A DNA stretch of 64,000 nt from an uncultured Planctomycetota bacterium (GCA_963849325.1 CAWKHF010000006.1:192001-256000); one strand, 5' to 3'. Positions 39,953 to 62,415 are shown, counted from the first letter of the stretch. Translations and numbers: made by a program. The notes: generated from the letters alone by a model not told the origin.

Positions 39953-40726
39953 ATGCCAACCGCGAAACCACCCCCCGCGCAGCCCACCAACCGTCTTCTG
40001 GCCCTTCTGCCGCCAGCCGAGTACCGGCGCCTTTCCGGCCACCTGCAAACCGTCTCCCTACCCGTGAAGCAAGTCCTTTATAAAGCCCGCTCGCCCATCG
40101 ATTACGTTTATTTCCCCGTCCGAGGCATCGTCTCGGCCATGACGATCATGGCAGACGGCCGGGCCATTGAGGTGGCCACGATCGGCAACGAGGGCATGGC
40201 GGGCCTGACGGCCTTCATCGGCGGCGAATCGTCGGCCAACGAGGTGATGGTGCAAGTGTCGGGCGAGGCCGTGCGGATGAGGGCGGCAACGCTGACCGAG
40301 GAGTGCGGCCGGGACGGCCCGTTACGACGACTCCTCATCCTCTACAACACGGCCTTTGCCACGCAGGTTTCGTACTCGGTGGCCTGCAACGGCCTGCACA
40401 AGGTCGAACAACGCTGCTGCCGTTGGCTGCTGATGACGCAAGACCGCGTAGGCTCCGACGTGCTGCCGCTCACGCATGAGTTTCTGTCGATCATGCTCGG
40501 CGTGCAGCGTTCGAGCGTCACGGAGGTCCTACATCCGCTCCAGGAACGGGGCCTGGTCCGCAACAGCCGGGGCCAGATCACGGTGAGGGACCGCCCCGGC
40601 CTGGAAGCCACTTCCTGCGAGTGTTACCGGGTCGTCAAGGACGAGTTCTCCCGCCTGTTCGGCTCCCAAGTTTCGCCGCGACGCGCAGCGGAGCGCGAGA
40701 CGCGCTCCGCTGCGCGTCGCGGCTAA
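39953..40726 (+). CDS. Crp/Fnr-family transcriptional regulator
   Basis: NRLLALLP, YVYFP..GIVS, IGNEG, ACNGLH..EQR.CRWLL, LTHEFLS.MLGV.RSSVT, SCECY. Confidence 0.93.
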   Translation: MPTAKPPPAQPTNRLLALLPPAEYRRLSGHLQTVSLPVKQVLYKARSPIDYVYFPVRGIVSAMTIMADGRAIEVATIGNEGMAGLTAFIGGESSANEVMVQVSGEAVRMRAATLTEECGRDGPLRRLLILYNTAFATQVSYSVACNGLHKVEQRCCRWLLMTQDRVGSDVLPLTHEFLSIMLGVQRSSVTEVLHPLQERGLVRNSRGQITVRDRPGLEATSCECYRVVKDEFSRLFGSQVSPRRAAERETRSAARRG

Positions 40727-40740
40727 ACGAAGTGGTGCGC

Positions 40741-41139: not shown

Positions 41140-41348
41140 TCTCCCCGGTATGGGTAGGCGGACAACTCCTCCAGGTAGCGCTCGATGTCGGCGGCGCACC
41201 AGCGCGTGCTGCGGCGATGCGGATGTACCGGCGCCGGCAGCAGGGCCAACGCCGTCCAGCGCCACACCGTTCGTTCGCTGATCGACAACCGCCGCGCCAC
41301 GTCGCGCACGGTCAGCAAATCCGGTGAGATCGAGGGTGGCGAGGGCAT
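41130..41348 (-). CDS. AlpA/excisionase-like HTH protein
   Basis: LLTVRDVARRLSISERTVWRW....LLPAP......TRW...DIERYL. Confidence 0.85.
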   Translation of the reverse strand: MPSPPSISPDLLTVRDVARRLSISERTVWRWTALALLPAPVHPHRRSTRWCAADIERYLEELSAYPYRGECE

Positions 41349-41414
41349 GAGTGACCTGAAGAAAAAACTCGTTCGCGGACGTTGGCTGGGATCGACGCGC
41401 GGAAAACAATCCCG

Positions 41415-41443
41415 AGGATACTGTACAATTGTTCATGTTGCAA
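41415..41443 (-). promoter_or_regulatory. Promoter of the AlpA-like gene
   Basis: Minus strand TTGCAA-N17-TATCCT; the -35 box lies within the left target duplication. Confidence 0.55.
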
Positions 41444-41540
41444 GGGCTTTGTTGCCAAACTTCCGCTTGTTGCAAAACCGATCCGGTTTGTCGCAAAACC
41501 GTCCGCCTGGAGAACTGGCAACAATTGTTGACAATTCGGC

Positions 41541-41569
41541 TTGACACATATACAGATGTTGGGTAATTT
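41541..41569 (+). promoter_or_regulatory. Internal sigma70 promoter of the transposon
   Basis: TTGACA-N17-TAATTT pointing toward the HTH gene and tRNA. Confidence 0.6.
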
Positions 41570-41904
41570 CTTTCCTGGACAATCCGCAGACTCAGGATGA
41601 GTCCGGCAGATGATTCGCTATAGAGGGTTGTGGTCTTTGCCGAAGGCTCCGAGAGCCGAACTGGCGATTGTCCGTGCCGCAGTAGGCGAAGTGGATTCAT
41701 AAGATTGCCCAGGCGAGCCTGCTGTGAGAACGTGACGAAGTGCCGCATCGGTAGGGCGAATTCTCCCCCCGCCCGCGCTTCTCTTTGAAGCAGTCTATTG
41801 CTGGCGCGAAACCACGAGAGCAAGGGGAATAACAGTACCCTTGACCAGTGGCTTTGCGCCGATTTCTTCTTTGGCCACTGGCAAGGGAAAGCCAGAGGCC
41901 AATC

Positions 41905-42132
41905 ATGTATCGCAAATCTCGTCAAGTAACGGAACTGCTCGGTATCAGCTATTGGAAGCTGGTTTCGATGCTGCGCTCCGGTAAGCTCCCACAGCCACAG
42001 AAAGACGCGAGTGGCGACCTGATATTGTCTAGCCGCGATGTTGCCAATGCGCGTAAGGCGCTGGGGATCGACCGCCGCAAGCGGCCACGGCCTCGGAGTG
42101 CCATCATCACAGGCCCGGAGGATGGTAGATAG
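41905..42132 (+). CDS. Small MerR/excisionase-like HTH protein
   Basis: MYRKSRQVTELLGISYWKLVSMLRSGKLPQPQKDASGDLILS..DV..AR.AL. Confidence 0.7.
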   Translation: MYRKSRQVTELLGISYWKLVSMLRSGKLPQPQKDASGDLILSSRDVANARKALGIDRRKRPRPRSAIITGPEDGR

Positions 42133-42192
42133 GGAAAAGACCCGGCAACGTCGGCCACCAACTGACAGGAAGGAACCGACGCGCCGGGGAGT

Positions 42193-42278
42193 GCGGGCGT
42201 GGCGAAAATGGTAAACGCAGCGGTTTAGCAAACCGCCGTGGTTTTCACCACTTGGGAGTTCGATCCTCCCCGCCCGCA
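42193..42278 (+). tRNA. Class II tRNA with Leu-type body and AGC (Ala) anticodon
   Basis: Acceptor GCGGGCG/CGCCCGC plus A73; D arm GCG-AAAATGGTAAA-CGC; anticodon arm GCGGT-TTAGCAA-ACCGC; variable arm GTGGT-TTTC-ACCAC; T arm GGGAG-TTCGATC-CTCCC; CCA not encoded. Confidence 0.9.
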
Positions 42279-42609
42279 TTTCTTTCTTACGTTCTTTTTC
42301 GGACTTTGAGAAGTTGAAAAGCCTAACGAGCGAACCTTGCGGTTGCTCGCCGCCGGCGTAATCGTAGCGCAATTGAAGGGTATCTGTAGTCCGCTTCTCG
42401 GTCAAAGACGCATGAAAAAAATAGACCCAAACCCATTGCTGCCATTTACTTGCATCGATCTCCTGTATATAATTACAGCAGACAAAAAGAAAGCCTCCGC
42501 CGTTGCTAGTAACAACGCCGGAGGCAGATGCAACCGGCGCGGTAACGCCAGAAGCACCCTCGAAAGCCATTCTAGCGTTCCCGCCCCGGACAGGGGAAGG
42601 GAACAATCC

Positions 42610-43863
42610 GTGGACATCCGCGAACAGAAAGCCGTTGAGCTTGCCGACCGAGGCCGCGTCGTCAAGCGGCCGAACGGTTGGCTCATCTACTCCCTTAACA
42701 GCTCCGAAAAGTATTTCGTCACCGTGTTGCCACTGTCCTGTACTTGCGCGGATTTCGAGCTGCGGCAAGAGCCGTGCAAGCATGTCCTTGCCGTGCAAAT
42801 TACCCTGTCCCGTGAAGCCAGCGGTTCTCTCACCGAGCAGAGCACGGAGACGCCGCCGATCAACTGGCCGCGAAAAACCTACCAACAGGATTGGCCGAAC
42901 TACGACGCCGCGCAGGAAAACGAGAAAAGAGAGTTTCGCTATCTCTTGTCCGACTTGTGCAGTACCATTCCGCAGCCCGAACCCAAGGGCGGGACGAAGG
43001 GCGGCAGACCGGCCGCGCTTCTGTCCGACGTGATTTTCGCCAGCGTCTTCAAGGTCTATTCGGGCCTGTCCGGTCGGCGTTTCAACACCGACCTGGAAGA
43101 AACTCAAGAGCGCGGCTTCGTCTCTGCCGTCGTTCACCACAGCAGGATTGCCCGTTGCCTGGAGGACGAGGAAACAACTCCGCTCCTCGTCCGCCTCATC
43201 GAAGCGAGCGCTCTGCCGTTCCGGGCCATTGAGACGGAATTCGCCGTGGACAGCAGCGGCTTTTCGTCGTGCAAGTTCGACCGCTGGTACAGCGTCAAGT
43301 GGGGCCGCGTCATGTCGAAGCATTCGTGGGTCAAGGTCCACGTTATCTGCGGCAGTACTACCCACGTCGTTACCAGCGTCATCGTCGGGACCAAAGACTC
43401 TTCGGATGCTCCGCAATTCGCTCCCCTCGTAAAGACGACGGCCCGAAACTTCACCATCGGTCAAGCGAGCGCCGACAAGGCGTATGCGTCGGCCGAAAAC
43501 TTTGAAATCGCGGAGGAGTGCGGCGGCACTCCCTACATCGCCTTCAAGAGCAATGCGACGGGAGCGGTCGGCGGCGTTTATGAGCGCATGTACCACCTGT
43601 TTTGCTTGAACAAGGAAGACTACCTCCACCATTACCATCGACGAAGCAACGTGGAGTCCGTCTTCAGCGCCGTCAAGCGCCTGTTCGCCGACGCCGTGCG
43701 GAGCAAGCACGAAACCGCGATGAAGAACGAGGCTCTGTGCAAGCTGCTCGCCTACAACATTACCCTGCTGGTTCACGCGATCTACGAGCTTGGTCTTGAG
43801 CCTCGGTTCGCGGATGAACACGACGAACCCCCTTTCATCTTGCCGATGGTTCGGCCCGGTTAG
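42610..43863 (+). CDS. DDE transposase (IS5/IS4-superfamily-like) with an N-terminal SWIM zinc finger
   Basis: SWIM CTCADF...EPCKH; QDWPNY..AQ; AVDSSGF, WVKVH, SADKAY, YHRRSNVESVFSAVKR. Confidence 0.92.
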   Translation: MDIREQKAVELADRGRVVKRPNGWLIYSLNSSEKYFVTVLPLSCTCADFELRQEPCKHVLAVQITLSREASGSLTEQSTETPPINWPRKTYQQDWPNYDAAQENEKREFRYLLSDLCSTIPQPEPKGGTKGGRPAALLSDVIFASVFKVYSGLSGRRFNTDLEETQERGFVSAVVHHSRIARCLEDEETTPLLVRLIEASALPFRAIETEFAVDSSGFSSCKFDRWYSVKWGRVMSKHSWVKVHVICGSTTHVVTSVIVGTKDSSDAPQFAPLVKTTARNFTIGQASADKAYASAENFEIAEECGGTPYIAFKSNATGAVGGVYERMYHLFCLNKEDYLHHYHRRSNVESVFSAVKRLFADAVRSKHETAMKNEALCKLLAYNITLLVHAIYELGLEPRFADEHDEPPFILPMVRPG

Positions 43864-44091
43864 CGGCTCCGGGGTTTTGCAACAGAATACCGGCCTGTTG
43901 CTAAACTGCTGATCCTGTTGCAAAACCTCTGTTGCTAAACTGGTTTGGCAACAAAGCCATGTTGCAAGAGAAAAAAATTGACTGCGGACGGATGGCGCGA
44001 GGTGGCACGAAATGGCGGCAAATGACAGGAAGGGCGGGGACCGGACTTCGTTTTGCCCGAGGGGACGGCTACCATGAGCGGGGAGGTGAGT

Positions 44092-44385
44092 ATGAATGAA
44101 TTACCCGCTCCGCCGGATGCGGCCGGCGATCCCGAGTCCGTGGAACTGCTGCGGGCCTGGGTCGTGCGCGAGACGCTGCAATGCTCGCTGCAAGCCGATG
44201 TCTTCCCCGACCCCGGCACCTGGGGCGCCGTCCTGGCCGACGTGGTTCGCTACGTCGCCAGCGCCGTCGAGCAGCAGGACGGCACCCCCGCCGCCCAGAC
44301 GGCTCGGCGCATCCTCGATGTGTTCGCCGAGGAGATGCGCTCCTCTCCCGATGAAGGAGCGACCCCCACAGAGCCTGAAGCGTAA
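44092..44385 (+). CDS. DUF5076-like small protein
   Basis: ELP.PPDA..D.ESVELLRAW, P.TWG..LAD..R.VA; the stop codon is supplied by a family-B REP. Confidence 0.75.
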   Translation: MNELPAPPDAAGDPESVELLRAWVVRETLQCSLQADVFPDPGTWGAVLADVVRYVASAVEQQDGTPAAQTARRILDVFAEEMRSSPDEGATPTEPEA

Positions 44386-44414
44386 GCGAAGAGTATCCCT
44401 TCTTCGCTTACGCT

Positions 44415-47400
44415 TCAGGCTGTTAGCGCATCCCGGACGCCGGCCGCTCCGACGCCTTGCGCAGGCGCTGGTCGGGGCCGTTGTTTCCACGCCTTGACGT
44501 CCTCTTGCAGCACCTGGACCGCCTTCGTCAACTGCACGTCCACGCCGCGCGGCATCTGGCCCGGCTCGGGCCAAACGATGGGATCGGGCACGGCGCCGTT
44601 CAACTCCATGTCCTCGCCGTCGTTGACGAGGAACCAGCCGCGGTACGGTACGCGGATCAGGCCGACGTCCATGATGAGTGCCGCTCCGGTGCTGACGACG
44701 CCGCCGGCGGTGGGCACGCCGACGAGCCGGCCGCGCTTCAGCGTTTTGATGGCGTGACTGAAAATCTCGGCGTTGCTGAAGCTGTTCTGGTTGCACAGCA
44801 CGACGATGGGCTTGTTCCAGGTGGCGTAGATCTTGCGGTCGTGCGGGTAGCCGGGTCCGCCGCCGCGCGGCACGGTGACGGCGTGGACCGGCTGCGTCAG
44901 GGCCGTCAGCAGGTGGTCCGCCGTGTTGCCGCCGCCGTTCTCGCGCACGTCGATGACCAGGCCGTCCTTGCCGGCGCCGACGGCGTACAACTGTTCCTCG
45001 AACTTGCTGAAGCTGACCGGGTCCATGGCGCTGATGTGCAGGTAGCCCAGCGTCCCCCGCACGGCGCGAGCCACCTCTCGGCGATTGTGTTCCAGCCAGG
45101 CCTGGTAAAGCAGCGGCGGCACCAGCTTGTACGAGATCGGACGCAGGACCACGTCGCGCTCCTCGCCCTCGGTCCCGCGCACGCGCAGGTACACGTCGCG
45201 CGGCAGCGGGCCGTTCAGCACGCGCGTTAAATCCATGTCCGGCTCGACGGCCGTATCCTCGATCTTGAGGATGACTTCGCCCGCGCGCAGACGGCCCTTC
45301 TTCTGGTCGGCCGGCCCGCGCGGCAGCACGTCGCGCACCTTCAGTCCCGGACCCGGATAGTCCGGCTGGAAACGCACGCCCAGGTGCGCGGTCGTCTCGG
45401 ACCATTTGGCGGAGGGCGCCTCCGCCGCCGGCGGATGGAAGCGGACGAAGCCTGGACTGCCGGGCGGATAAAAGCCCAGGTGCGAGCCGTTCAATTCGCC
45501 GAGCATCAGCTGAACGACGGTGGTGAACGCCTCGCTGTCGGGGGCCTCGGCGGCCCTATCGAGATACTTGCGGCGGATGGCCGGCCAATCGCGGTTGCCG
45601 AGGCGCTCGTCGTACCAGCGATCGCGGCATGGTGCGCCAGCACAGATCGAAGGCGGCGCGGTTGCGCTGGGCCAGATCCACGCGCTGCAAGGCCTGGAAG
45701 CGATAACCTCCCGGGACCGATTCGCCGGCCGCAGTGGACGCCGGGCCGCGCCGCGCCGGCTCGGCCGGCTCGGTTGTCGCCGACTTCGCCGCGCCCGGCG
45801 TGAAGCTCGCCGGCAGGCCGTTCGACAACCACACCACCTGATTGCCCTGTTTTAGCCAGCGCGGCCGGCTGCCCGTCTGCGCCGTCAGGAATTTCGGTTT
45901 GAGATCGTCGGGGACCTCGATGGTGTACGTCCCTCGTTTGCCCTCGATGACGGCCGTGAAGGCCAGCTTCTTCGAGTCCGGCGACCAGAACAGGCCACTC
46001 TCCGTCGCATGGGGGATCGAGACGCGATGAAGGCGCGCGTGAATGTTGTCGAAGTCGATGACCACCTCCGGCGCCCGCGCCGGTCCCGCGGCGCGGTTGT
46101 CCTCGGCGACGCCTTTCTTTTTGCGCACTTTGTTGATCTTTTCCAGCGCTTTATCGAGGCTGCGTCCGCGTCCGCCTTTCTCATCGTCCTCGGCGCGGAG
46201 CCAGACGTAATGGATGTCCACCTCGGTCAGTCCGCGCCGTCCGGTGAAGGCGAGGAGGCGACCGTCCGGCGACCACACCGGGTTGCCGTCGTTGTAGGGA
46301 TGGCGCGACAGGTTGAACGGCTTGCGCGAAGCGTCGGCAGGCACGATCCAGACATCGCGGTTGAAATCGCTGTCGCTGTGGGCGTAGACCAGCCATTTGC
46401 CGTCGGGCGACCAGTCGTATTCCAGCTCGTCCCACGATGGCACCAACCGCCGGGCGTTGCGGCCGTCGGCGTCGGCGATCCACAGATCGCCCCGGCCGCG
46501 CAGGTAGGCGAGGCGCGAACCATCGGGGCTGAAGGTCAGGTTCGACTTGACCTCGCCGTCGTCGCTCAAGCGTTCGAGCCGGAAGCGGCTGTTTTGCCAC
46601 CACGGTTTATTGGGGTCGGCGCGGACGGCGCGCCAGATGTCCGAGCGCGCTTCGCGGTCGGCCACGAACAGGAGCGTCTGTCCGTCCGGCGCGAAGACGG
46701 GACGCTTTTCCTCCTCGGCGGTGGCCGTCACCTGTCGCGGCTCGCGCAGCTCGGTATCCATGACCCACAGGTCACCGCCGGCGATGAAGGCGACCTCCAG
46801 GCCGTCCGCCGTGAACGCCGCCTCGCTCGCCTGCCGCAGGACACGGTTCTCGATGCGGTCCTTCACTGGGTCGCTGTCGTGGCGGACTTCGATCTTCCAC
46901 GGTTTTTTGTCTCGGCCGGGGTGCAGACCATAGAGGTCGAACAGGTGGCGGAAGACGAGCGTGGAGCCGTCGCGGGAGACGCACGGAAAGACAACCGAGT
47001 CGTCGCGGAAGTGCGTCAACTGTTCGCCCGAGCCGGAGGCGAGGTCATGGACCCAGAGGTTGAACGAACCGCCGTGCGCGCCGACGTAGTAAAAGCCCTT
47101 ACCATCCGGCTTCCACAGCGGCCAACGGCAGCCGGTGTCCTCGTCGAGCAAGCGACGGAACGTCCGGGCTTGGAGATCGTAGAGCCAGATCTGGCTGGCC
47201 TGCGAGCCGCGATAGCCCTTGCGCCACCAGGCCGGACCCTCGCGCGTGAACAGCAAGCGCTTGCCGTCGGGCGACAGGCAGCCGTTCTGCCCATAGTCGT
47301 CGAACAGCAGCCGCTCGACCTGGCGCACCTCCGCACCGATGGAGAAGAAGCGTTCGGCGTGGCGCCAGAAGTGATCGCGGACAGCGTTGATCAGGAGGCG

Positions 47401-47937: not shown

Positions 47938-48032
47938 GGGAGCGTTTGCACCTCTGGTGGGGGCCCTGGTCTTCAAAACCAGTGGCGGGTTTGAACAAAG
48001 CTCGCTGTGGGTTCGATTCCCATACGCTCTCG
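47938..48032 (+). tRNA. selC: tRNA-Sec (UCA)
   Basis: 8-bp acceptor GGGAGCGT/ACGCTCTC plus G73; TGGT D loop; CTGGT-CTTCAAA-ACCAG with TCA at 47973-47975; long variable arm; GTGGG-TTCGATT-CCCAT. Confidence 0.92.
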
Positions 48033-61408: not shown

Positions 61409-62415
61409 TCAGGGCGTGGTTCGCCGAGGTTCCTGCGACGCCACCGGCTTACCCTCGGGCGGCGGCTTGAGGCGAGTCAGCAGACTACGGCTCAGCGCCA
61501 GCAGATCGCCGACCGCGCCTGGTTTGAGCACCTGGAGGCTGGGCGGATCGTCGCCCAGGGGCGGCATGCACACGACGACGTTGGCGTTGCCGACCACCGT
61601 GAAGGAGTGGCCGTGCACCACCACGGCCGTCTGCTCGTCGATGCCCAGGCCCAGGCAGCGCGGATGCTGCGACAGTACGCCCAGCAAACGCTGCTGACGC
61701 TTGCGGTTCTCGAAGTGCTGATCGATCACCACGTCCGGCAGCAGGCCGAAGCCGGTGCCGACGCGCGCCTGCGGATTGCCGCCGGTAATCATGACGGCAC
61801 TCATGACGGAAGCGCCGGCGGAGGTGCCGCCGACGACGCCGCCGCGCTCCAGCAGCCGTCGTAGCTCGCGCTCGACGGCCGTGCCGCGGTAGGCGCCCGC
61901 CAGGCGCGACTGATCGCCGCCGCCCAGCCACGCCGCCGTCGCCTCGGTCAACGGCTTGACGAACGCCGGGTCGTTGGCCTGCTTCGGATCGAGCGTGTGC
62001 AGCATGTCCACCGACTCCAGACCCTGCCGCTTCCAGTAAGCGTAACTCCGGTACGTGCGGGTTTGGTCGGCCCATTCGCTGGCCGTGGGAATGACGACCA
62101 GCTTGCCCTTCTTGCCGCCCGCCAAATCCAGGAAGCGATCGCGGATGGTGTCGGGCATGTCGCCGCCGCCGACGATGACCAGGGCGCCGGCGGTTTGGCG
62201 TTGGCCAGACGCGGCGGCGTGTCACCCTTCGGTTCGCCGAACGCTGTCGTCGGCAGCAGGCCCAGCAGGATGCCGGCCAGCGATGCCGCCAGCGGTCGCC
62301 GGCCGACAGGGGCAAGTTTGAGAAAACGAGACGAGAGGACGACTCTGTTTCCGTCGAAATTCGGTCGCAGCACAGCAACCTCCGCAACTCTGGGGAGGAC
62401 GAACGTCCGTGTCAA
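61409..62415 (-). CDS. Cyanophycinase-like S51 peptidase with signal peptide, frameshift near 62190, start uncertain
   Basis: LVIVGGG, VIPTAS, GGGDQSRL, GGTSAGA, IDQHF..R.R..RL, GIDEQTA. Confidence 0.88.

Follow-up and report, generated by a model that had tools for sequence, protein, structure and literature searches.

Insertion sequences (IS) in which one transposase and one pair of terminal inverted repeats (TIRs) surround genes without a part in transposition are termed "transporter IS" (tIS) in the ISfinder literature. The passengers known to us are protein genes, for example regulators, methyltransferases and resistance genes. tRNA genes also move with mobile DNA, in phages, integrative elements and tRNA arrays, but there they are mostly canonical and belong to large elements with integrase or phage machinery. 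Of natural tRNAs that misread the genetic code only a few cases are known to us, namely allo-tRNAs, tRNA-ProX and the yeast CUG decoders. A small transposable element with a fixed place for a tRNA, as described here, may bear on their origin and spread.

On the side of the tRNAs, two reports come closest. Mukai et al. (2017; PMC5389517), in their passages on irregular tRNAs, described soil-metagenome tRNAs with a body identity (Ser, His) that does not match the anticodon, which are suspected suppressors of the missense or nonsense type. They saw one pseudogene that overlapped a "transposon-related protein" and proposed a connection with transposable elements; some irregular tRNAs were charged, yet unused in E. 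coli translation; and irregular and allo-tRNA genes lay near toxin-antitoxin systems. A defined IS that combines TIRs and target duplications with a slot for a tRNA is not described in the same passages. Schuntermann et al. (2023; PMC10404621) reported tRNA-ProX of Streptomyces, in which one body carries the non-cognate anticodons of Ala, Asn and Thr, and demonstrated mistranslation. tRNA-ProX is accompanied by a synthetase gene (ProRSx), whereas the element described below contains none, and the paper, in which no word begins with "transpos" or "mobile", does not report tRNA-ProX on insertion sequences. The literature search found no description of an IS-borne tRNA slot, which agrees with an earlier note on this DNA that knew of no such architecture, although Mukai et al. 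had suspected the link between irregular tRNAs and transposable elements; the supplements of PMC5389517, which lay outside the search, may show relevant loci.

The present locus lies in a window of 64,000 nucleotides, the whole stretch of DNA that was analysed, from an uncultured Planctomycetota bacterium. It differs from phage and integrative-element tRNAs in being a 2.5-kb DDE insertion sequence with one non-canonical tRNA (Table 1), and from known tIS in that the recurrent passenger of its family is a tRNA; the place of this tRNA is fixed, its flanks are conserved, and relatives exchange it.

Table 1. The insertion sequence and its parts, with positions counted from the first letter of the window
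Feature	Position	Strand	Basis or remark
Target-site duplication, left copy, ATGTTGCAAG	41435..41444	.	Sequence; empty sites with one copy
Insertion sequence, 2,514 bp	41445-43958		Perfect 16-bp TIRs and 10-bp target duplication
TIR, left, GGCTTTGTTGCCAAAC	41445..41460	+	16/16 complementary to 43943-43958
Subterminal repeats TGTTGC(C/A)AAAC, three copies	41449..41501	+	Direct-repeat family; presumed transposase-binding sites
75-aa ORF, weak helix-turn-helix likeness	41905..42132	+	ORF private to the element
Leader hairpin immediately 5' of the tRNA slot	42141..42191	+	Conserved; 88% identical to the leader of relative L020
Passenger tRNA, class II, tRNA-Leu-type body, anticodon AGC, A73, G3:C70, no encoded CCA	42193..42278	+	Rfam, ARAGORN, covariation
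T-rich tRNA trailer	42279..42330	+	Common to the sister element on contig C5 (alignment); putative terminator
Promoter-like site TTTACT-17-TATAAT	42445..42473	+	10/12 consensus matches; kept in L014 and L024
First hairpin of the structured transposase 5' UTR	42493..42525	+	Inverted repeat; compensatory changes among 5 elements
Mini-ORF MQPAR*	42528-42545	+	Follows the first 5' UTR hairpin
Transposase gene, 417 aa, SWIM zinc finger and DDE_Tnp_1	42610..43863	+	Pfam
Right subterminal repeats, three direct and one inverted copy of TGTTGCNAAAC	43873..43942	+	Repeat families, inverted pairs
TIR, right	43943..43958	-	Inverted-repeat pair with the left TIR
Target-site duplication, right copy, ATGTTGCAAG	43959..43968	.	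Sequence; empty sites

The TIRs and the 10-bp flanking direct repeat, both already seen in the earlier note, are borne out. In the whole 8.16-Mb genome, exact copies of the TIR 16-mer occur only at the two ends of the element, and the one copy with a single mismatch (C5:61572) is a solo left end. In two genomes of the same genus (G177:C3 and G107:C264) the flanks are contiguous around a single ATGTTACAAG. These empty sites with one 10-mer identify a true insertion with a 10-bp duplication and settle a one-base ambiguity of the boundary. The target site is intergenic. The proposal that the element was recently active finds no support: it is present in one copy, and the flanks in the empty-site genomes are only 75-79% identical to its own. 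A composite transposon was rejected on the grounds of one transposase gene, one TIR pair and no second IS copy in 41445-43958. Of the subterminal repeat TGTTGCNAAAC there are three copies at the left end, and three direct and two inverted ones at the right end. A pairing of the anticodon arm of the tRNA with the right subterminal repeats (81% over 21 nt) was dismissed as chance, there being no similar match by eye in the relatives L020 and L014.

The transposase gene proved uninterrupted, as claimed, from a GTG start at 42610 to a stop at 43861-43863. Its product matches the Pfam families DDE_Tnp_1 (75.8 bits) and SWIM (33.1 bits), and D214, D289 and E349 are invariant among 26 homologues together with Y342, R345 and K356; IS4/IS5-type DDE transposases have a Y-2-R-3-E-6-K signature in addition to the catalytic D, D and E. 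The best NCBIfam model, NF033579 (IS5_2), scores 103.4 bits, below its cut-off of 140, and identity to annotated plasmid IS5-family transposases is only 21-30%. The earlier comparison with IS903 agrees with the relevant part of PMC10569121, in which the ends of IS903B begin GGCTTTGTTGAATAAATC and the target repeat is 9 bp. The present element has the IS4/IS5-type DDE domain in common with IS903/IS903B (IS5 family), and its ends begin GGCTTTGTTG as those of IS903B do (PMC10569121, same part). Nearly all resolved ends of its relatives begin GGCTTTG, and their target duplications are mostly 9 bp (10 bp in L050, L055, L061, L112 and L020). Unlike IS903, however, the element has an IS5_2 score below the cut-off, an N-terminal SWIM zinc finger, subterminal repeat arrays and a tRNA slot. 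Its own duplication is 10 bp instead of the 9 bp given for IS903B in that part of PMC10569121, and elements of its family are 2.5-3.8 kb long, with 0.7-2 kb from the left end to the transposase gene and often with downstream cargo. We place the element, which is intact, in a large IS5-family branch that has no name of its own; its ends are IS903-like.

Many close transposase homologues are annotated at 483-485 aa, and a 483-aa reading starting from ATG 42412 was considered and rejected: substitutions in 42412-42609 show no third-position excess, unlike those in the transposase control. In this upstream open frame, amino-acid changes spare the TATAAT and the hairpin nucleotides, the TATAAT letters surviving such changes within over-extended gene calls, and in one homologue the hairpin is read in a different frame. 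Since there is no coding signature and nucleotides rather than amino acids are kept, we take 42412-42609 as promoter and 5' UTR. The promoter-like site is the only one that the scan found; shuffled sequence also gives one. Downstream of the first hairpin, further pairing covers the ribosome-binding site of the transposase. A T-box-like pairing between the hairpin loop and the anticodon was discarded, since the loop contains GCU here, but no matching codon is found in L014, L024 or L020 (alignment by eye).

As for passengers, the tRNA and the 75-aa ORF lie between the single TIR pair together with the one transposase. The earlier note had listed a promoter, a long leader, a helix-turn-helix gene and a tRNA as cargo between the left end and the transposase, and of these the promoter and the helix-turn-helix gene are the weaker points. 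All domain matches of the 75-aa ORF are sub-threshold (E 0.02-0.06; HTH_17 at E 0.061, PHROG MerR-like and excisionase at E 0.03), so that its HTH identity is not accepted, and it has no homologue in related elements. No promoter-like site was found at the left end, the only one being that at 42445-42473 just upstream of the transposase. The leader hairpin resembles that of L020 despite the different tRNA there, and is kept also in L014 and L024. The sister element on contig C5 carries an additional pyrE-like gene (TIGR00336, 128.7 bits).

The tRNA precedes the transposase gene on the same strand, at a distance of about 330 bp. It scores 53.3 bits with the Rfam tRNA model (gathering score 29), and ARAGORN draws a cloverleaf that it labels tRNA-Ala(AGC). 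Alanine identity, which by rule depends on G3:U70 and a class I body, is rejected for a class II tRNA with G3:C70 and a variable arm of 17 nt. A34, as in this anticodon, is unusual in bacteria. The features of tRNA-Leu are instead present, namely the long variable arm, A73, a 3-bp D stem and an 11-nt D loop, all except a leucine anticodon; a 3-bp GCG/CGC D stem, an 11-nt D loop and A73 are likewise found in the tRNA-Leu genes of the host. Five homologous Leu-type tRNAs occur at the same place in related elements. When a covariance model made from the six was run on 150 other Gemmataceae genomes and the source genome, its best matches outside IS were tRNA-Leu(UAA) in 27 of the 27 such loci returned, and so was a further high-scoring match that was fetched separately. 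One candidate (G046:C101) for another Leu-type IS tRNA was dropped, being a canonical tRNA-Leu(UAA) with no transposase nearby. The comparisons indicate that the slot tRNA descends from tRNA-Leu(UAA) though it has the alanine anticodon AGC, which sharpens the earlier description of a "non-canonical tRNA". Its acceptor/T arrangement is 7/5 in the Rfam alignment (ARAGORN draws an optional eighth U:A pair), and with this and its tRNA-Leu body it is not an allo-tRNA, a class with a 12-bp acceptor branch split 8/4 or 9/3 according to the passages of PMC5389517 on these tRNAs.

The same data bear on whether the tRNA could be ordinary supplementary cargo, charged with alanine as its anticodon dictates and aiding the reading of rare GCU codons, as phage tRNAs supposedly do. 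The ARAGORN label and the status of GCU as a minor alanine codon in the genome (11.5%) would fit. We nevertheless consider this very improbable, given the lack of the G3:U70 pair, the class II body derived from tRNA-Leu, the tRNA-Ala genes that the genome already has (GGC, UGC and CGC) and a transposase gene without GCU enrichment (GCU at 4 of its 36 alanine codons; mean share in the family, 0.10).

Across the six Leu-type tRNAs, standard pairs are found in all 148 scorable cells of the 25 stem pairs, and 15 of these pairs have changed on both sides in a compensatory manner, which none of 500 shuffles matched. U33, A37, A38 and A73 are invariant, and the T-loop and D-loop signatures are kept. 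The anticodons, which the earlier note had proposed to tabulate across homologous elements, are AGC here and UUC, CCC, UUA, UUU and UCC in the other five: one tRNA-Leu body in six elements with six anticodons. This pattern of substitutions points to purifying selection on the tRNA fold while the anticodon loop varies. If the tRNA were a functionless remnant of a single capture, now in decay, this would accord with an element that is single-copy in the genome and with a mismatch of anticodon and body such as a mutated gene might have, but such a relic is hardly credible when 25 of 25 stem pairs are intact in six homologues, 15 of them compensated, when the loop signatures are kept and when the slot is filled in many independent elements. 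A conserved fold with a variable anticodon loop would also suit a decoy or antidote, a surplus tRNA-like molecule, changed in its anticodon loop, that titrates or evades tRNA-directed toxins or defence nucleases, to the benefit of the host and hence of the IS, and the toxin-antitoxin neighbourhoods noted in the passages of PMC5389517 lend it some colour. We regard this as improbable: the suggestion is one by analogy, the element holds no toxin, antitoxin or nuclease gene, and the immediate neighbours scanned, an HTH_17 gene and a DUF5076 gene, are neither toxin nor nuclease.

The earlier note had allowed for a capture without counterpart in homologous elements. Homologous elements do carry a tRNA, however, in the same place and on the same strand, in the source genome, in other Gemmataceae and in metagenomes. 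In the source genome, four of the eight transposase loci have a same-strand tRNA upstream. ARAGORN or Rfam finds a tRNA in 9 of 91 copies from other Gemmataceae genomes and the source genome, and ARAGORN in 9 of the 54 metagenome loci that extend far enough upstream. With a more tolerant finder the count is 21 of 149 copies; two more are detected by ARAGORN only, and one was recognised by eye. At least 23 of the 149 family copies examined carry a tRNA. The metagenome relatives are 38-51% identical, a single-protein search of genome contigs gave two loci, and the survey covers relatives beyond the nearest transposase homologues (67-83% identity, P0002-P0030). Standard finders overlooked several slot tRNAs with very long variable arms or odd D arms.

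All 12 tRNAs found in 140 scanned loci are on the strand of the transposase, 141-419 bp upstream of its start. Among other loci, the tRNA-Ser of L028 lies downstream of the transposase, at about 200 bp, and L033 has a tRNA on the opposite strand. L018 has an unrelated tRNA-Gly in its flank and, about 1 kb upstream, a second tRNA; in L017 a tRNA-Met stands beside a degraded copy. Eleven further TIR-bounded elements with a 9-10-bp target duplication have the tRNA inside; in L129, with clear TIRs, the duplication was read by eye, and in L065, whose contig begins and ends with the TIRs, it is out of view. Quite different tRNA bodies are swapped precisely at the tRNA ends while the flanks are conserved (L055 versus L061 and L073). 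The family has a fixed tRNA slot between a conserved leader hairpin and a T-rich trailer. Carriers are a minority and are scattered on the transposase tree, with 17 changes for 19 carriers, from which we conclude that the tRNA is dispensable for transposition. In two degraded copies of the source genome, the transposase gene has decayed and the tRNA is intact.

As an alternative, the tRNA may be no decoder but a cis-acting RNA device. Cleavage by RNase P and RNase Z, or termination with the help of the T-rich trailer, would cut transcripts that read in from cargo or host before they reach the transposase, which would then be made from its own promoter only. Any tRNA body would serve, hence the very different tRNAs in the slot. 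Besides the invariant strand, the narrow spacing and the exchanges of unlike bodies at the exact tRNA ends, the trailer with a separate promoter-like site downstream of the tRNA and a transposase 5' UTR built for tight control speak for such a device, as does the charging of some irregular tRNAs without use in translation noted in the passages of PMC5389517. It offers no reason, however, why the anticodon alone should vary with U33, A37 and A38 invariant, and leaves unexplained the excess of Leu- and Ser-type bodies, those of anticodon-blind synthetases, with foreign anticodons. Moreover, most family members lack a detectable tRNA, and in the two degraded copies the tRNA has outlasted the transposase. 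We consider the device unlikely, if less so than the other alternatives.

The reading that we favour, with moderate confidence, is that the IS with its dedicated tRNA slot is a vehicle that spreads tRNAs with a mismatch between anticodon and identity, that is, missense and nonsense suppressors. According to PMC11028032, the anticodon is not among the features that the aminoacyl-tRNA synthetases for Ala, Leu and Ser recognise. As leucyl-tRNA synthetase is blind to it, the slot tRNA is probably charged with leucine. It would then read the alanine codon GCU as leucine, at some low level, and the targets of its homologues in sister elements would be Glu, Gly or Lys codons or the UAA stop. Separate transcription of the tRNA and the transposase is most likely; the transposase gene is preceded by a promoter-like site of its own, and its 5' UTR is folded such that the ribosome-binding site is concealed. 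The "irregular" tRNAs of soil metagenomes and metatranscriptomes, the genomic home of which has so far been unclear, may be explained by such a vehicle.

Efficient misreading is argued against by the transposases of tRNA-bearing elements, in which cognate codons stand with their standard meaning at invariant positions. For example, the element with anticodon UUC encodes invariant Glu by GAA/GAG, and the one with UUU encodes invariant Lys by AAG. If missense decoding were efficient, it would thus damage the enzyme of the very element that carries the tRNA. The unusual A34, the minority of carriers and the irregular tRNAs charged yet unused in E. coli weigh against a role in decoding as well. 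Likewise, with GCU at about 11.5% of alanine codons in the source genome (a rough ORF-based count), strong misreading of Ala to Leu would be costly to the host. "Self-recoding", in which the transposase would need its own tRNA for Leu at cognate codons, was rejected, since invariant positions keep the standard amino acid and GCU is at variable positions only. Translational control through rare cognate codons finds no support here, since in 16 elements their share in the own transposase is about the family mean or lower, and codon usage in the transposases of tRNA-bearing elements shows no significant shift.

Beyond the Leu-type tRNAs, the family slot holds Ser-type bodies (G73, long arm) with Cys or Tyr anticodons and a tRNA-Sec-like body (Rfam tRNA-Sec, 54.5 bits) with anticodon UAG. 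The relative L129 has a 9/3 tRNA with anticodon GCA, which fits the allo-tRNA definition in the passages of PMC5389517. A copy in the source genome has a histidine-like tRNA with G-1:C73 and anticodon GGU; its GUG at 35-37 is as in the HisRS-chargeable type of the same passages. A bolder and more doubtful proposal, which we put forward tentatively, is that the IS family forms a mobile kit for altering the genetic code, characterized by exchange of whole tRNAs, a preference for anticodon-blind bodies (Leu, Ser, Sec-like, His with G-1), foreign anticodons including stop readers, and 6-nt anticodon loops. If so, regulated suppression of the missense, nonsense and perhaps frameshift kinds would spread among soil Planctomycetes and other bacteria by way of transposition and horizontal transfer, and mistranslation would be a transferable trait and raw material for codon reassignment.

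ARAGORN names the slot tRNAs by anticodon alone, and "tRNA-Ala" and "tRNA-Stop" are examples of the resulting labels.

The segment at window 41445-43958 is, with near certainty, an insertion sequence (IS) that contains an internal tRNA gene. Re-reading of window 41200-44200 and a repeat search bore out the terminal inverted repeats (TIRs), the flanking repeat and the layout that an earlier note on this DNA had proposed for 41435..43968. The repeat search also found arrays of the subterminal motif TGTTGCNAAAC inside the ends: the left array has three copies and the right one five, of which three are direct and two inverted. A search for the element ends across all 14 contigs of the assembly (8.16 Mb), a check that the earlier note had suggested, found the exact TIR 16-mer confined to the two ends of the element, and the whole element occurs as one copy in the genome. 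When the left and right flanks were queried separately against ten genomes of the same genus, two of them (G177:C3 and G107:C264) contained an empty site, in which the flanks are contiguous and their matches overlap by exactly 10 bp (...atactgtacaa..gt.. ATGTTACAAG agaaaaaaag...). This shows that the element truly inserted here and duplicated 10 bp of target DNA (target-site duplication, TSD); the one-base ambiguity that the earlier note had left at the boundary of its 10-bp direct repeat is settled by the two empty sites.

The lone one-mismatch copy of the TIR in the assembly lies at C5:61572 of the window's own genome (G000). A lone left end from a close relative occupies positions 61572-61640 of that contig; it has 15/16 TIR positions, two subterminal repeats and no transposase, and a tRNA-Ser(GGA) gene is found 400 bp away. 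Short interspersed repeats flank the insertion region on both sides (window 40670-40733, about 60 nt, and 44371-44421, about 50 nt). Both are palindromic and REP- or MITE-like, and each has dozens of matches (85-98% identity) in G000 and congeners, frequently in both orientations.

Features of the window element and of related tRNA-bearing elements (G, genomes; C, contigs; L, loci around family transposase copies)
Feature	Location	Strand	Properties
Left TIR GGCTTTGTTGCCAAAC	window 41445-41460	+	pairs 16/16 with reverse complement at 43943-43958
TSD ATGTTGCAAG	window 41435-41444 and 43959-43968		abuts both element ends
tRNA of window element	window 42193-42278		Leu-type, anticodon AGC; Rfam tRNA 53.3 bits
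Promoter-like site TTTACT-17-TATAAT	window 42445-42473		
First 5' UTR hairpin	window 42493-42525		compensatory changes among five elements
Second intact family element	G000 C5:716350-719637 (L014:1850-5137)		48% transposase identity; class I tRNA, serine anticodon GCU
tRNA of degraded copy (C6:447-448 kb)	G000 C6:448564-448636 (L015:9065-9137)	-	intact, G-1:C73, loop UUGGUGG
Slot sequence of degraded copy	G000 C2 (L018)		weak, tRNA-Sec-like; Rfam 28.6 bits
Second tRNA at L018	1 kb upstream		72 nt, ochre-reading anticodon UUA
Homologous slot tRNA	G177		anticodon UUC
Homologous slot tRNA	G084		anticodon CCC
Homologous slot tRNA	G046:C9		anticodon UUA
Homologous slot tRNA	G046:C13		anticodon UCC
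Homologous slot tRNA	metagenome locus L088		anticodon UUU

The earlier claim that the tRNA is internal to the element holds, and extends to 11 further elements with resolved ends and 9-10-bp TSDs, every one with its tRNA inside (the C5 element, L020, G177, G046:C13, L027, L055, L061, L066, L088, L112 and L129). Their TIRs begin with GGCTTTG in ten cases, the exception being the C5 element. The G177 and G046:C13 elements measure 3,819 and 3,505 bp; the TSD of L020 is GGAGACACCT and that of L129 was read by eye. At L065 the TSD cannot be seen, because the contig starts and finishes at the TIRs. The C5 element has a 10-bp repeat (ATTATTAGAC) and subterminal repeats TGCACAAAAAC; a pyrE-like gene for orotate phosphoribosyltransferase (TIGR00336, 128.7 bits) lies downstream of its transposase.

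The window transposase belongs to a large family: among the candidates scored, 3,113 proteins reach E <= 1e-20, and matches occur in 66 of 201 Gemmataceae genomes, in 40 of 90 genera. By tblastn, G000 has eight family loci, two intact and six degraded, and four of the eight have a same-strand tRNA upstream. ARAGORN combined with Rfam identified 6 carriers among the first 30 loci of Gemmataceae genomes, the window included, and ARAGORN identified 3 among 61 further copies. For metagenome loci, at 38-51% identity, the ARAGORN count is 9/54, the denominator being those of 80 loci with more than 600 bp upstream. Our own finder, with stricter stems and longer arms, detected 21 carriers among all 149 copies with at least 500 nt upstream. 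It recovered five tRNAs that ARAGORN missed (L061, L069, L072, L073 and L112), while two were found by ARAGORN alone (L063, L115) and one by alignment alone (L060); since each finder misses some slot tRNAs, all these counts are lower bounds. In the 140 loci of the two ARAGORN scans (further Gemmataceae copies and metagenome loci), each of the 12 tRNAs found has the same orientation as the transposase gene and is 141-419 bp upstream of it. The refuting case named in the earlier note, a one-off capture with homologues that never carry a tRNA, is contradicted by these same-strand upstream tRNAs in G000, other Gemmataceae and metagenome loci, and we are highly confident that a family-wide tRNA slot exists.

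The slot tRNAs missed by ARAGORN (L061:1026-1133, L073:2603-2710, the L060 slot upstream of 3001, L112, L069 and L072) have variable regions of 30-40 nt, a D-arm insertion or an aberrant D arm; L112, the one among them that was put to Rfam, was missed there as well. tRNAs off the slot were seen at L028 (tRNA-Ser downstream of the transposase), L033 (opposite strand), L018 (its second tRNA, with UUA, and a flanking tRNA-Gly that is unrelated) and L017 (tRNA-Met beside a degraded copy). The tRNA-like genes of L018 are at G000 C2:189640-189711 and 190309-190399.

The window tRNA very probably has tRNA-Leu ancestry. ARAGORN labels it tRNA-Ala(AGC) from the anticodon alone. It has a 7-bp acceptor stem with G3:C70 as pair 3:70. 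After U8 and G9 comes the D arm (3-bp stem GCG/CGC, 11-nt loop); the anticodon loop reads UUAGCAA, the variable arm is 17 nt long and includes a 5-bp stem, and the T arm is normal. The discriminator is A73, and CCA is not encoded. G3:C70 is not the alanine identity pair, and together with the 3-bp D stem and the 17-nt variable arm it speaks against alanine identity. The same D arm and A73 occur in the host's own tRNA-Leu genes; the host tRNA-Ser genes have G73. In an alignment of the window tRNA with five homologous slot tRNAs, U33, A37, A38 and A73 are invariant around six different anticodons. All 148 of 148 stem cells are standard pairs, and 15 of 25 pairs have changed on both sides; none of 500 shuffles reached this pairing, and slid controls dropped to 42-62% paired. 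A covariance model built from the six was run on G000 and 150 other Gemmataceae genomes. Beyond the IS-borne copies, the best matches listed were host tRNA-Leu(UAA) genes at 27 of 27 loci, and one extra high-scoring match, fetched apart, was tRNA-Leu(UAA) also. These best host matches and the conserved fold indicate that the IS tRNAs descend from tRNA-Leu(UAA) and have been maintained as folded tRNAs, with only the anticodon changed. The earlier description of the tRNA as non-canonical is thus apt, as a Leu-type body bears the alanine anticodon AGC.

Across 21 nt, the anticodon arm of the window tRNA (42218-42238) and the right subterminal repeat (43891-43911) show 81% complementarity; within this pairing, GTTTAGCAA, 9 nt long, and TTGCTAAAC are reverse complements. 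By eye, no such complementarity was seen in L020 or L014, and it may be chance or a mimic of a transposase-binding site.

Leu-type bodies are part of a very diverse set of slot occupants. Ser-type tRNAs (G73, long arm, encoded CCA) have anticodon GCA or GUA. The closest relative of the window element (69% transposase identity, near-identical TIR) contains a tRNA-Sec-like body in 8/5 arrangement (Rfam tRNA-Sec 54.5 bits) with UAG, and a 9/3 tRNA with GCA and class I bodies also occur. Two slot tRNAs (L063:1219-1293 and L151:1111-1182) have 6-nt anticodon loops, for which ARAGORN gives a two-base "anticodon" cg; loops of this size are able to cause frameshifting. The flanks of L055 (class I, GUU) and of L061 and L073 (106-nt Ser-type) match until a few bases short of the tRNA 5' end, and the match resumes at the base right after CCA; the window element and L020 share a 50-nt leader hairpin (88% identical) beside unrelated tRNAs. 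These breaks and the shared leader point to an exchange of slot content between elements, exact in close relatives. On a FastTree tree of 142 transposases (duplicates of the window copy and of L020 excluded, and likewise copies that have stops or whose ends are incomplete), carriage is scattered, with 17 changes for 19 carriers and clustering no greater than for shuffled labels, several "non-carriers" merely having no upstream sequence. The sole uniform clade is the window's own (3/3 carriers). The slot itself is old, and gains, losses or swaps of its content are frequent.

According to PMC11028032, the anticodon is not recognised by the Leu, Ser and Ala synthetases. As the Leu synthetase is blind to it, a tRNA-Leu body with AGC should be charged with leucine and, once leucylated, would read GCU as Leu; the homologous Leu-type tRNAs would read Glu, Gly or Lys codons or UAA. 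That the window tRNA decodes GCU as Leu in vivo is a possibility that we put forward tentatively. The slot tRNA could instead be a cis-acting RNA-processing or terminator signal that protects the transposase gene, which we consider unlikely: this alternative is kept alive by G-1 GGU tRNAs that, in the work of Mukai et al., are charged by HisRS yet insert no His in E. coli (PMC5389517), but it sits poorly with foreign anticodons on anticodon-blind bodies. A decoding role fits better, because Leu-, Ser- and Sec-like bodies with foreign anticodons are in excess and U33, A37 and A38 are invariant around a variable triplet. Other observations count against such decoding. Transposases of tRNA-bearing elements have cognate codons, in their normal meaning, at invariant positions, so that efficient misreading would harm the element itself. 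In 16 elements the transposase gene shows no enrichment of the codon cognate to the tRNA beside it, so a private translational control by such codons is not supported. In long ORFs of G000, about 11.5% of alanine codons are GCU (rough count); any misreading must therefore be weak or regulated.

The transposase ORF is unbroken and matches a SWIM zinc finger (33.1 bits) and DDE_Tnp_1 (75.8 bits) in Pfam. Across an alignment of 26 homologues, D214, D289 and E349 are invariant, as is the spacing Y342-R345-E349-K356, which we take to be the Y-2-R-3-E-6-K signature. The transposase most probably starts at GTG 42610. Annotated lengths of 483-485 aa are common among close homologues, because the open frame reaches upstream to a codon equivalent to ATG 42412. 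A protein of that length from ATG 42412 was rejected, since substitutions in 42412-42609 are even across codon positions (21/16/14, 14/13/16, 30/34/27 and 25/22/14 in four relatives); the third position dominates in the transposase gene (e.g., 23/18/40 and 22/15/42). Amino-acid changes in the supposed extension preserve the TATAAT nucleotides, and one homologue reads the hairpin in another frame. The region is thus better explained as a structured 5' UTR preceded by a promoter-like site, and pairing further downstream masks the ribosome-binding site GGGAAGGG. The 3' arm of the first hairpin contains a GGAGG, and 5 nt beyond it begins a mini-ORF (window 42528-42545) that encodes MQPAR*, or MQPAG* in the C5 element; it may serve to control translation of the transposase. 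Cargo in the left 700 bp is private to the window copy. The "HTH gene" of the earlier note stands as a 75-aa ORF (41905-42132), but its helix-turn-helix matches are all sub-threshold, and no homologue was found in related elements.

The published IS903B ends (GGCTTTGTTGAATAAATC..., with a 9-bp direct repeat; PMC10569121) agree with what the earlier note had said of IS903 (IS5 family). The window element resembles this family in enzyme and ends, and its nearest annotated plasmid genes are IS5-family transposases (21-30% identity). However, it falls outside the curated IS5 models (best NCBIfam model IS5_2, 103 bits, under the curated cut-off of 140) and has the SWIM finger in addition. Its architecture is that of a passenger-carrying IS, and the passenger is an exchangeable, anticodon-shifted tRNA. 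Natural mistranslating tRNAs are already described, as allo-tRNAs or irregular tRNAs (PMC5389517; review PMC7609411) and tRNA-ProX (PMC10404621). The C6 tRNA of G000, with anticodon GGU and GUG at positions 35-37, is of the same type as the "G-1 tRNA1" chargeable by HisRS in Mukai et al. (2017), where one allo-tRNA pseudogene overlaps a "transposon-related protein" and a link to transposable elements is guessed (PMC5389517). A literature search found no published account of a defined IS with a tRNA slot, and a 2024 review on tRNAs in mistranslation contains no word beginning with "transpos".

A bona fide tRNA-Sec gene with anticodon UCA (window 47938-48031, + strand) is located 4 kb downstream of the element. 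It scores 72 bits with Rfam tRNA-Sec, for which the gathering score is 47, and is probably the host selC, unrelated to the IS. Elsewhere, G000 has three dense tRNA arrays of 7-14 genes each (C4:433741-435175, C12:838476-839555 and C1:515629-516193), which include 74-nt "Leu" tRNAs without a long arm, and several ARAGORN calls of 90-96 nt that look like false or aberrant tRNAs.
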